From the NCBI GenBank assembly GCA_944380265.1, contig CALWGY010000001.1:3790-67789 (forward strand): a stretch of DNA of 64,000 nt, read 5' to 3'. A program made the translations under genes and the position numbers. Positions within the stretch are counted from its first letter, which is position 1, and every line of letters starts with the position of its first letter. This DNA comes from an uncultured Clostridia bacterium (lineage in GTDB: Bacteria; Bacillota; Clostridia; Christensenellales; UBA1242). Under the pieces are notes generated by a model. The model saw only the letters and a program-made list of their open reading frames with translations, did not search any database and was not told where the DNA came from. Shown here piece by piece: positions 47,668 through 50,600 of this stretch.

Positions 47668-50600
47668 ATGCGAAATAAAAAACCAAATTTTAGAGTAAAA
47701 CATCCATATCAAAATTTAATTAATAGTATTTTTATGGGACTAGTACTGCTACTAAGCAGTATTTTGTCCGTTTTTTTAATTAAGCCAAACACAAATTCAA
47801 TTGGCTTTGTTGATGCTTATGGCGGAAATGGAACTGAGGAAAGACCATACTTAATTTACAACTTAAACGACCTTAAAAATGTTAACACATTTTCAACAAG
47901 GGCAAAGGTTGCAAGTTTGTCTCCAAGGCATTTTAAACTTATGGCAAACGTTGATGCAACAAGTTTGAATAATGTTGTTTCAAAAGAATTTCAAGGCATT
48001 TTTGATGGTAATGACAAAAATTTAAAAGTTGAATATAATTTATTTAATGAAATTGAAGAAGGTTCAACAATTCAGAACTTAAATATAGATGTTAACTCTC
48101 GCATTTCAGAAAACACAGGCTATTTAGCAAACATAAATTATGGAACAATTAGCAATGTTTCATTGATTTCAACAAATCCTAAATTCTATGGTGAAGAGAA
48201 TGCGGTTTTGTACAATAAAATACTTGAAAACAATACTAAAATTGAAAATTTGAGAAAAACTAATGGACTTATTGTGGAAACAGAAGAAAATAATTCTGAA
48301 GAAACATCCGATAATTCGGAAAATTCCGACAATATATCAAATGAAACTAATCAAAAAATAAATAAAGTATCTTCAGAACAAATTGATTATGTTGCTTACA
48401 AAGAATCTTTATTGTTCCCTGAAAAATTAACAGAATCAAACAATTCTGTTGAATATTTTATAAATTTAACTGAAGATGAAGTTTTTGCTTCAAAAAATGA
48501 AATAATAAATAATCCAAACATACTATCAAGCTCTGATGGTAATGTTTCTTTTGTTTCTGAAAATCTTGTATACGTTATAAGTGAAGATAATTTAATTAGT
48601 TTTGATGAACTGGAATTTGAAGTAAAACAAGAAAACTATGTTAATAGGATAGATTTTTTAAATAATGAAATAGCAAGAAAAGATTTAACCGATGAACAAC
48701 GTTATGCATATATTGTTGAATTTTATAATTTACAAAATTCATATGAAGAATACTATACTGAATATTGCAATAGATTAAACGGGAATAATAATGCGATATT
48801 CAGTAATGGTGTTGATTTAGAAATGTCAAACTTAGAAAGCGAAGTAAATATTTTAAGTCAACAATTACAAGATAATAGTTTCAGTTCTCCTCTAGTTATT
48901 TATAATGCTTCAACGGGTGTAATTGAAAAAACATCGGTTGGCAACGATTCTGAAATGGATACTCAATCTGATTCAAACACAAGTGTTAAAGTCTCTTCTG
49001 GAGTTTATGCTGAACACAGTTATGGAACAAACACATCAAGTTCATCAAGTATAGGTGGAATTACAAGCACAAATAGTGGTCTAATAATTGAATGTATTAA
49101 TAAAAACAATGTTACTTGCACTGGATCATCTGGAAATAGATATGCTGCAGGTATTTGCTTAACCAACACAGGAAACATAGTTGATTGTTATAGTGGAAAA
49201 GCTTCAAATGGCACAAAAAGAACAGTTTCTGTGACAAATTCAAGCTACTTAGGAGATGCTGGTGGAATTGTTAGATTAAATTCAGGAACTATTAGAAGAA
49301 CAATTAATTTTGGTGACGTTAAAGCACGTTATGGAAACAATGGATCAGCCAGAACAAGTGTGGGATCTGGTGGTAGTGGCGGACTTGGAACAGATCAAAT
49401 AGGAAGCGGACTTATTGGACGAGGTGGTTCTAGAGGTACATATGGCAGATATGGTTATTATGGCTATAGTGGGGGATCTGCAGGAGCCATTTCTGTTGAT
49501 AATATTGGCACTATAACAGGTTGCTATAACTATGGTTATATTCAATCTGGATCAGGCGGAAGAGGTAGTGGTGGTTCCGGCGGCGGCGGCGGCGGCGGCG
49601 GCGGCGGCGGCGGAAATGCAAATTTTGGTGGCGGAACTTCTAGTGGTGGTAAAGGAAAGGATGGAAAACCATCCTCATCAACTAGCACGACTGGTGGATC
49701 TGGTGGATCCGGGGGATATCGCGGTAGAGGAACTAACTATTGGTTGTCAGCTGGCGGCGGCGGTGGTGGTGGCGGCGGCGGCGGCGGTGGTGGTGGCGGC
49801 GGTGCTGGTGGATTTGCAACAATAAGCTCAAACACAACATTCCCAAACCCATATGGCAAAAATGGCGGTAGTGGTGCTAGTGGATCTAATGGTGGCAATG
49901 GATCAGGAAGTTTTATGGGTATTGGTGGATCTGGTGGATCTGGTGGATCTGGTGGATCTGGTGGATCTGGTGGGGCCAGAGCTTATAATGGTAGTGGAAA
50001 TGTCGGAAATTCAGGTTCTTCAGGAGATAATGGAAAAAGTGGAGGTAATGGTATTTGTGATAAAGGTACCAGCGGATACGACAATGGTGGCAGCGGCGGC
50101 GCTGGTGGTAAAGGTGGCAATGGCGGAAAAGGTGGATCTTCTGAAACTGCGGGATCCCAAAATGCAACAGTGCCAAAAACAAAATCAAGCTATTCTTCTT
50201 TTAACTGGATTTCAATTTGGTTTATGGGGGGAAATGGACCTGAATTAAGGTTTGATAAAGATGCAAACCATAATGCTTATTTTTATATTAAATTTAGTAT
50301 AACATTTAACGGTAAAGCTATTAACGATAGAACTATTTCAGCAAGCAATTTTTCATATTTAACAAGTAATGTATCTATTAGTTATGCTGGACAAAATTTG
50401 TATAATTTAATTGCCACAAGCTCAGGTGTTAAAGTTCCATCTGGACAACAAGTTACTATAACTTCTTCACATCGAATAACAGTGGATGCAACTTCATCAT
50501 ATAGTTCAGGTACTCAATCTGGTAGAAGTTATGATTTTAATTCGCAATCAGGTACGAGAACGGAAACTTCTTCAAGGAATTCTTCATATACATATTCTTA

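Follow-up and report, generated by a model that had tools for sequence, protein, structure and literature searches.

Why does a bacterium with a genome of about 30% guanine plus cytosine (GC) carry, within one giant gene, a glycine-dominated block encoded in part by perfect GC-rich microsatellites, and is the length of this block free to change? The question is raised by a 64,000-nucleotide (nt) stretch of the genome of an uncultured Clostridia bacterium (GenBank assembly GCA_944380265.1), here called the window, in which a giant open reading frame (ORF) starts with an ATG at position 47668 of the plus strand, is read in frame 1 and runs off the window at 64000. The complete gene (C1:51457-80928) encodes 9,823 amino acids and makes up 2.4% of a 1.21 Mb genome of 16 contigs and 30% GC. 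It specifies an N-terminal anchor followed by repeated modules, each composed of a head and a GLUG-type beta-solenoid, and the glycine block lies in the first of these modules, at approximately residues 555-830. The original prediction, made from the DNA of the window, regarded the block as a hypervariable spacer. Comparison with orthologous sequences indicates that, rather than a free spacer, it represents an insert that is conserved, is specific to the genus and separates the last GLUG rung of module 1 from the cap; its glycine segments may form a structured domain of constrained length, which we tentatively consider the single most likely reading.

The repeat tracts on which the question rests are indeed present. 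Direct reading, translation and Tandem Repeats Finder (TRF) placed the (GGC)11, the run of 17 GGC/GGT codons and the (GGTGGATCT)5 exactly where they had been claimed (all coordinates are on the plus strand of the window unless a contig is named). The first is part of a perfect (CGG)12 at 49578-49613, detected by both TRF and direct reading, which is translated in frame as 11 GGC codons (49579-49611) followed by GGA; it is held within glycine segment 1 (GGSG12; residues 635-649, 49570-49614). The 17 consecutive GGC/GGT codons (49753-49803), alternatively described by TRF as a perfect 24-nt unit repeated 2.1 times, begin glycine segment 2 (G17-A-GG; residues 696-715, 49753-49812). The third tract, reported by TRF as a perfect (TGGTGGATC)5.7 at 49923-49973, equals the perfect (GGTGGATCT)5 at 49924-49968 and encodes (GGS)5GG (residues 753-769, 49924-49974), the longest version of this element among the orthologues. 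Two further segments complete the series: GGSGGSGGY (residues 676-684, 49693-49719), encoded by an imperfect threefold copy of the GGTGGATCT unit, and a C-terminal (GGX)6 segment, GGSGGAGGKGGNGGKGG (residues 807-823, 50086-50136), just before which stands a conserved aromatic residue. The block comprises multiple stretches of Gly or GGX, each six residues or longer and with a periodicity of three, with loops between them.

Glycine dominates this stretch as foreseen, with 121 Gly and 44 Ser among the 276 residues from 555 to 830 (44% and 16%), and since Gly codons are GGN, the GC content spikes locally, reaching 0.58 in 300-nt windows compared to a genome average of ~0.30. Two tracts of the block are the two longest perfect short repeats of the entire 1.2 Mb genome, and no poly-G run of more than five residues was found in any other six-frame ORF of that genome. 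The tracts exceed chance expectation: even if codons are drawn as in the GGC-rich poly-G runs of the orthologues, eleven identical GGC codons have a probability of ~0.004. A perfect short tandem repeat of at least eight units within coding sequence, one of two features taken to mark a simple-sequence contingency locus (the other being a copy number that differs between strains or within populations), is therefore found in the block, and as the tracts are in-frame microsatellites, slippage at them cannot break the reading frame, as had been argued. A 131-residue ORF in another frame of the same strand (49853-50248) was discarded as a gene, being a stop-free by-product of the GC-rich repeat sequence.

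The position of the block within the protein bears directly on its role. The modules follow a common plan: a head (G.GT...PY.I.N ... F.G.FDGN), GLUG-type rungs (GG[IV].G.N.G.I..C.N.G) and a cap (F.GF.F..W......P.L). In module 1, a first set of rungs (residues 454-560, 49027-49347), modelled by AlphaFold2 as regular short strands with a predicted local distance difference test (pLDDT) score of 75-96, is followed by a first Gly-rich loop (residues 561-595, GSGGSGGLG...YGYYGYSGGS; 49348-49452; pLDDT 31-40), which is placed between two rungs and in which GSGGSGG is conserved and G571 and G572 are invariant among orthologues. The last rung (residues 596-637, AGAISVDNIGTITGCYNYGYIQSG...; 49453-49578; pLDDT 75-90) carries a conserved CYN.G.I motif, and the module terminates in a cap (residues 845-866, FNWISIWFMGGNGPELRF...; 50200-50265) that reads K..Y..F.W..W.M...P.L, forms a beta-hairpin in both AlphaFold2 models and has W, M, P and L invariant among orthologues. 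This is the same ending as that of ordinary GLUG modules, observed in the later modules of the protein and in protein P0121. In those modules the last rung is separated from the cap by ~25-30 residues; in module 1 the distance is ~205 residues, mostly Gly, Ser and Asn, in addition to the 35-residue loop between rungs. Because the block follows the last rung of its own module and precedes that module's cap, it is an insert within a module rather than a linker between domains, which speaks against the spacer role first assigned to it.

The assignment to GLUG modules (PF07581), known from clostridial and other surface proteins, is based on the head and cap motifs, read directly, together with the rungs of module 1 (454-560 and 596-640), which AlphaFold2 builds as a regular beta-solenoid with pLDDT 75-96. 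The Pfam GLUG match downstream is sub-threshold (18.8 bits against 20.5), and a profile of residues 454-866 matched 3,802 proteins, in almost every case by way of the rungs. Head, rungs and the F.W..W...P.L cap are thus all present around the block, while ordinary GLUG modules possess neither the ~205-residue Gly/Ser insert nor the inter-rung glycine loop.

To what extent is the insert conserved? The related genomes are metagenome-assembled genomes (MAGs) whose records bear the names uncultured Christensenella sp. or Clostridia bacterium; the isolate labels among them are Hadza, sheep-colon, goat-colon and MGBC. The N-terminus of the gene is present in eight of ten species of the genus, and complete blocks were obtained from five genomes: that of the window, L013, L014 (= G009), L016 (= G005, UBA6345) and L019 (= G001). 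These five species are 31-51% identical over the domain and keep one order of elements. The last rung (CYN.G.I.SG.GG.G) is followed by segment 1, a variable loop, a GGSGGSGGY-type segment, an aromatic-x-x-A/S motif and segment 2; then come an aromatic-rich loop, a GS-rich stretch containing the GGS tract, Y/W-x-x-(GGX)5-6 and the K..Y..F.W..W.M...P.L cap. Segment 2 measures 20, 20, 20, 18 and 20 residues in the five species; it is poly-G in four of them and, in L016, it reads GGTGGKGGKGGNGGAGGSGG, that is, (GGX)6. Furthermore, Y/W-x-x-GGxGGxGGxGGxGG is conserved in all seven orthologues that reach the C-terminal (GGX)6 segment, and block plus cap span 218-244 residues in all five species.

Conservation is not restricted to the glycines. 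In the three nearer species, the identity to the window protein at non-Gly positions is 0.31-0.45 within the block, compared to 0.14-0.33 in the N-terminal variable region and 0.19-0.32 in the region after the cap; composition alone is estimated to give ~0.13. Gap density in the block does not exceed that of the flanks. It is the occurrence of the Gly segments at the same positions and with similar lengths across species that leads us to regard the block as a conserved insert rather than a free spacer. Read directly from these alignments, the Gly segments hold their positions, at least one of them is fixed in length, and their runs are written almost solely with GGC and GGT.

The distribution of the insert is narrow, as it was found in one of 58 genera of the family in a search of 151 genomes. 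A distant homologue, P0144 (3,108 amino acids), aligns over the whole domain and alternates beta-like hydrophobic stretches with GGxGGxGG tails. When metagenome contigs were scanned with the N-terminal alignment, the sole matches were distant GLUG heads of environmental origin, and no orthologue was among them; homologue searches with queries of 5,444 and 6,666 amino acids gave no matches, their word index being swamped by glycine words and length limits applying, and a further search yielded five N-terminal fragments.

Structural precedents exist for such an arrangement. In the solved structures of the antifreeze protein of the snow flea (sfAFP), gp38 of phage S16 and ALK/LTK, glycine runs form polyglycine-II bundles, and poly-G can stand in for GGX and vice versa because each turn of the polyglycine-II helix takes three residues; the conserved glycine-rich motifs of gp38 act as a scaffold for hypervariable loops (PMC13243192). 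All of these (3BOG for sfAFP; 6F45 for gp38; 7NX1 and 7N00 for ALK/LTK, family PF12810) are extracellular domains built of several runs of consecutive glycines or GGX, with ~6-10 residues per helix, in alternation with loops. The block resembles them in alternating Gly segments with loops and in the equivalence of GGG and GGX at fixed length. It differs from them in its longer Gly segments (15-20 residues) and in having no sequence relation to them, the ALK, LTK, gp38 and sfAFP chains being absent from its PDB matches; nor is their fold predicted for it.

According to the explanation that we favour, the first head + GLUG module of this putative surface protein would contain a conserved, genus-specific glycine insert of about 200-270 residues, replacing the short rung-to-cap connection near the N-terminal anchored end. 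The Gly segments of this insert, poly-G or GGX in type and ~15-20 residues in length, would number at least four to six, with short, more variable loops bearing Tyr, Trp or Phe in between. The segments are envisaged as extended strands of polyglycine-II type; as one turn comprises three residues, GGG and GGX would be interchangeable. They may pack together or on the solenoid, leaving the variable loops exposed, and would create a compact joint towards the cell-wall end of the fibre. Polyglycine-II packing is the form of structured domain that we infer by analogy, and the basis that remains for it consists of the GGG/GGX equivalence at fixed length, the interleaving of Gly segments with aromatic-bearing loops, the solved precedents and the alternation observed in P0144. 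Slippage and short tandem duplication would recently have homogenised codons and lengthened the GGS tract, generating the perfect microsatellites of this lineage, and selection on the protein appears to limit net change in length. The hairpin-forming, G-rich tracts would, in addition, derail short-read metagenome assembly.

Several results weigh against a structured glycine domain. Pfam and NCBIfam searches with five pieces of the protein, the block alone and P0144 recovered no family for the block. AlphaFold2 modelling of the block in context (8 sequences) gave a pLDDT of ~30 for residues 641-850 without secondary structure, and of the block alone (5 sequences) a mean pLDDT of 39 with only the cap hairpin formed; such low scores are what a disordered region would be predicted to give. 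Foldseek returned no PDB match with E < 1, its weak rows being beta-solenoids, which fit the rung part, and sequence and profile searches of the PDB matched only engineered (G4S)n flexible linkers. Furthermore, the species differ in the length of segment 1 (9 to 19 residues) and in that of the GGS tract. Finally, substitutions between assemblies of the same species are enriched in the block, with 13 in 722 nt compared to 8 in 3,111 nt of flanks (~7-fold, p = 1.5e-5) in one comparison and 6 in 237 nt compared to 14 in 1,662 nt (p = 0.03) in a second. As the alignments used for AlphaFold2 are very shallow, its failure to fold the block constitutes weak evidence, and the substitution excess could stem from relaxed constraint on loops, from gene conversion between repeats or from errors where a GC island has poor coverage.

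Membership of two known glycine-rich families was rejected. For PF12810 (Gly_rich, now ALK_LTK_GRD; gathering score 24.5 bits), hmmscan of the block and of P0144 gave no match even at E <= 10, and a six-frame search of the whole genome gave no candidate; the same search was positive in 6 of 301 genomes of the order, with 69-155 bits in the five above the cut-off, and so provided a positive control. Alignment of two block alignments to six bacterial PF12810 members with hhalign gave probabilities of 0.2% and 0.1%, and the PF12810 motifs YKLE.WGA.GG, GYNGGG, GGGGATH and G.G.ARIT are absent from the block. Since giant proteins from the same order do include true PF12810 domains, the original assertion that such glycine-rich sequence is unexpected in a low-GC Firmicute was overstated.

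The second family comprises the mycobacterial PE_PGRS proteins, whose PGRS domain is predicted to be a polyglycine-II 'sail'. This family, for which AlphaFold models show a polyglycine-II sandwich (PMC11939664, PMC13243192), was likewise set aside: the N-terminus of the giant protein is a basic motif, a hydrophobic anchor and a GLUG head, Pfam finds no PE domain, and the Gly segments are only four to six in number and 15-20 residues long, compared to the hundreds of residues of GGA/GGN doublets of PGRS. The two share GGxGGx repeats derived from GC-rich repetitive DNA, surface exposure and a presumed proneness to length change. The block is, in contrast, a single locus rather than a multigene family, is embedded in a GLUG solenoid module, and belongs to a host of 30% GC, so that its GC-richness is purely local; AlphaFold2 is not confident in its case. 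The suggested likeness to PGRS and polyproline-II sequences accordingly holds as an analogy and fails as membership, given the missing PE domain, the lack of PF12810 homology and the absence of an AlphaFold2 fold. A GGxGxD (RTX-type calcium-binding) periodicity, also raised at the outset, was not evident on reading the translation, no formal scan having been made.

A bolder form of the favoured explanation would see the block, its orthologues and P0144-type relatives as an undescribed bacterial polyglycine-II lattice domain on the end of a GLUG solenoid, unrelated to ALK/LTK, gp38, sfAFP or PGRS, in which length-constrained poly-G/GGX helices, 15-20 residues each, would serve as a scaffold, at the foot of a 10,000-residue fibre, for short aromatic loops that vary. 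We regard this as rather unlikely.

Among the alternatives, the one that survives best is a disordered hinge or tether rich in Gly, Ser and Asn, which would be flexible and hydrated and would allow the fibre to swivel or to thread through the wall, selection acting on composition and approximate length only. Gly/Ser linkers, such as those of filamentous-phage g3p or the engineered (G4S)n, and the repeat stalks that span the wall in Gram-positive adhesins, for instance the Ser-Asp repeats of ClfA/Sdr, are of low complexity, are encoded by short in-frame DNA repeats and lie near an anchored end; they tolerate wide variation in length and show no positional conservation. The block is similarly a Gly/Ser-rich, low-complexity sequence arising from in-frame repeats near an anchored end, and its composition, the pLDDT of 30-39 without secondary structure, the artificial (G4S)n linkers as sole PDB sequence matches, the lack of any family or fold match, the segments that differ in length between species and the raised substitution density within species all agree with such a tether. 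It departs from these linkers and stalks in keeping its segment order, its aromatic anchors and at least one segment length between species. Gly segments and adjoining aromatics that hold their positions at 31-51% identity, a segment 2 that stays at 18-20 residues while switching between poly-G and GGX, and non-Gly positions as conserved as those of the folded neighbours speak against it. Moreover, with the block inside a module, its length would not set the spacing between domains if the cap packs back on the solenoid. We rank a disordered tether second, and consider it doubtful.

A spacer of the contingency type, with a length free to change by in-frame slippage, is what the original prediction proposed, and the DNA supplies reasons to consider it. 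The perfect tracts of 11-12 triplets and 5 nonamers are the longest in the genome, and the G-rich strand of (CGG)12 folds as single-stranded DNA into a strong hairpin (-23.2 kcal/mol, z = -4.4), which plausibly favours polymerase slippage. Among the orthologues compared, perfect repeats are confined to the window genome, the orthologous poly-G runs being imperfect mixes of GGC (60%), GGT (37%) and GGA (3%). The GGS tract is written with a different set of codons in each lineage (GGT GGA TCT in the window, GGT GGC TCT in L014 and GGT GGT TCA in L019), which is a signature of repeated local slippage or homogenisation, and it is longer in the window than in the relatives. The perfection of the repeats is recent and special to the lineage of the window, and points to slippage or homogenisation. 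Recent expansion, deduced previously from this perfection, is a fair description of the GGS tract, as this is longest in the window genome; segment 2 matches that of the relatives in net length, and therefore reflects homogenisation and not net growth.

The glycine runs of the window and of L013-L019 are 97% GGC/GGT; across the genome, GGA and GGG make up 33% and 7% of Gly codons. Decoding by a single tRNA-Gly(GCC) is a possible reason for this preference, and avoidance of G-homopolymers and of Shine-Dalgarno-like GGAGG, or slippage of GGY units, are speculative ones.

If the block were a hypervariable spacer, copy numbers should differ between close relatives. Three same-species pairs, all from sister species of that of the window, revealed no in-frame change in copy number. 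L013 and L015 (99% identical) both have 13 codons in segment 1, all differences within it being synonymous; L013 and L175 (99.3-99.6%) agree in the length of segment 2, the GGS tract and the (GGX)n segment, and differ by one out-of-frame deletion of 67 nt that starts in segment 1; L016 and L176 differ by one substitution in 2.85 kb and one deletion of 31 nt, located in a contig of 2.6x coverage. All changes inside poly-G runs in the same-species pairs were synonymous. The two deletions could be counted in favour of hypervariability; as neither is a multiple of three and one comes from the 2.6x contig, they look like assembly errors, real null alleles being the alternative. The tracts of the window itself are perfect and the likeliest to slip, and the pairs above cover sister species. 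For the window's own species the only other assembly is L174, which is 98.9% identical over the shared part of the gene and 96.7% over the full 7.9-kb match, and in which homology is lost at window position 49566, 12 nt before (CGG)12. Taken with the conserved position and length of the segments between species, non-Gly positions as conserved as their folded neighbours and an indel density no higher than that of the flanks, these comparisons provide clear evidence for a conserved architecture and no positive evidence for in-frame length hypervariability, and they make a hypervariable spacer, the third-ranked reading, improbable.

The behaviour of the assemblies is itself informative. Five of 13 independent assemblies of the gene read through the block cleanly in frame (window, L013, L014, L016 and L019), and the other eight go wrong inside it: five end a contig there (G002 and G006 on both sides, G004, G008 and P0021), one is chimeric (L174) and two have frameshifting deletions (L175 and L176). 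The L174 scaffold (ENA ERZ16268079 scaffold_13) carries, at 7899-12459, beyond the point matching window position 49566, DNA that encodes a D5_N/DUF5906 primase-like gene. Insertion of a mobile element was considered and rejected; the downstream DNA has 50-58% GC and is absent from the window genome, and the scaffold is for these reasons read as a chimera. The copy numbers given for the window are those of its assembly. That the tracts or their exact lengths are mere artefacts of a MAG is a very improbable reading, ranked last: the eight failures inside the block are in its favour, but five independent assemblies carry equivalent runs in frame at the same positions, the tracts (36-51 nt) are taken as shorter than typical short reads, the frame runs open through 9,823 codons, and the genome was found to contain neither a second copy of the block nor another version of it.

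The remainder of the giant protein offers a context for the insert. Its N-terminus (residues 1-41, 47668-47790), which reads MRNKKPNFRVKHPYQNLINS-IFMGLVLLLSSILSVFLI, consists of a basic motif, FRVKHPYQNLINS, followed by a hydrophobic signal or anchor segment, and is kept in all orthologues; an anchoring function is deduced from its sequence, and no C-terminal sorting signal was found in the full 9,823-residue protein. The motif occurs in similar form in the distant homologue P0144 and identically in P0021. The first 40 residues of P0021 are exactly those of the window protein, and are followed by a different, shorter head. This pattern suggests that FRVKHPYQNLINS and the hydrophobic segment may serve as a dedicated export or anchor signal, with module swapping behind it.

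Further observations concern the giant frames of this and related genomes. The same 1.2 Mb genome contains, outside the window, a second giant ORF of 5,912 amino acids (from C2:134262 onward), and in G013, a member of the family, a frame with the GLUG cap motif stays open for 18,042 amino acids (contig C5). This family of small genomes seems to be marked by giant surface proteins. The orthologous frame of G002 (L011, G002:C8:2-958 and on; 9,477 amino acids) contains one in-frame TGA, which may be due to a sequencing error or to recoding, or may mark a pseudogene. Further along the gene, L013 (~4090-4540) and L175, which agree at 99.6% in the first 2.1 kb of the locus, differ by ~130 mismatches in 450 nt (codons ~1300-1450), mostly non-synonymous; the patch corresponds to ~51,600-52,000 of the window by position only and suggests a putative mosaic or hypervariable cassette. 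The sole other Gly-rich ORF of the genome (C3:86510-87628, outside the window; 372 amino acids) consists nearly entirely of collagen-like G-P-T and G-A-T triplets after a Cys-rich N-terminus and resembles BclA-type exosporium or collagen-like surface proteins; on account of its collagen-like GPT repeat, it was rejected as a relative of the block.

The main practical effect of the block is to break metagenome assemblies: an island of ~600 nt of elevated GC reliably derails short-read assembly of the gene. As assemblies break, become chimeric or acquire frameshifts within it, calls of the giant protein gene in public MAGs are often truncated or split, and such calls in these abundant small-genome gut Clostridia are to be distrusted.

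Glycine-rich low-complexity regions of surface proteins are a known theme, and the novelty here is modest, with a minority chance of an independent polyglycine-II domain. The block nevertheless provides an example of long poly-glycine runs (12-17 residues) that are apparently kept under selection in a bacterial surface protein, with an equivalence of poly-G and GGX at fixed length, as expected of polyglycine-II helices. It also illustrates that perfect in-frame microsatellites need not imply hypervariability, since selection on the protein can hold length while slippage homogenises codons. If the fold were confirmed, an independent bacterial lineage would join the handful of known glycine-lattice domains, and a lattice domain at the end of the GLUG solenoid would, if real, represent the independent invention of a rare fold in a low-GC gut anaerobe.

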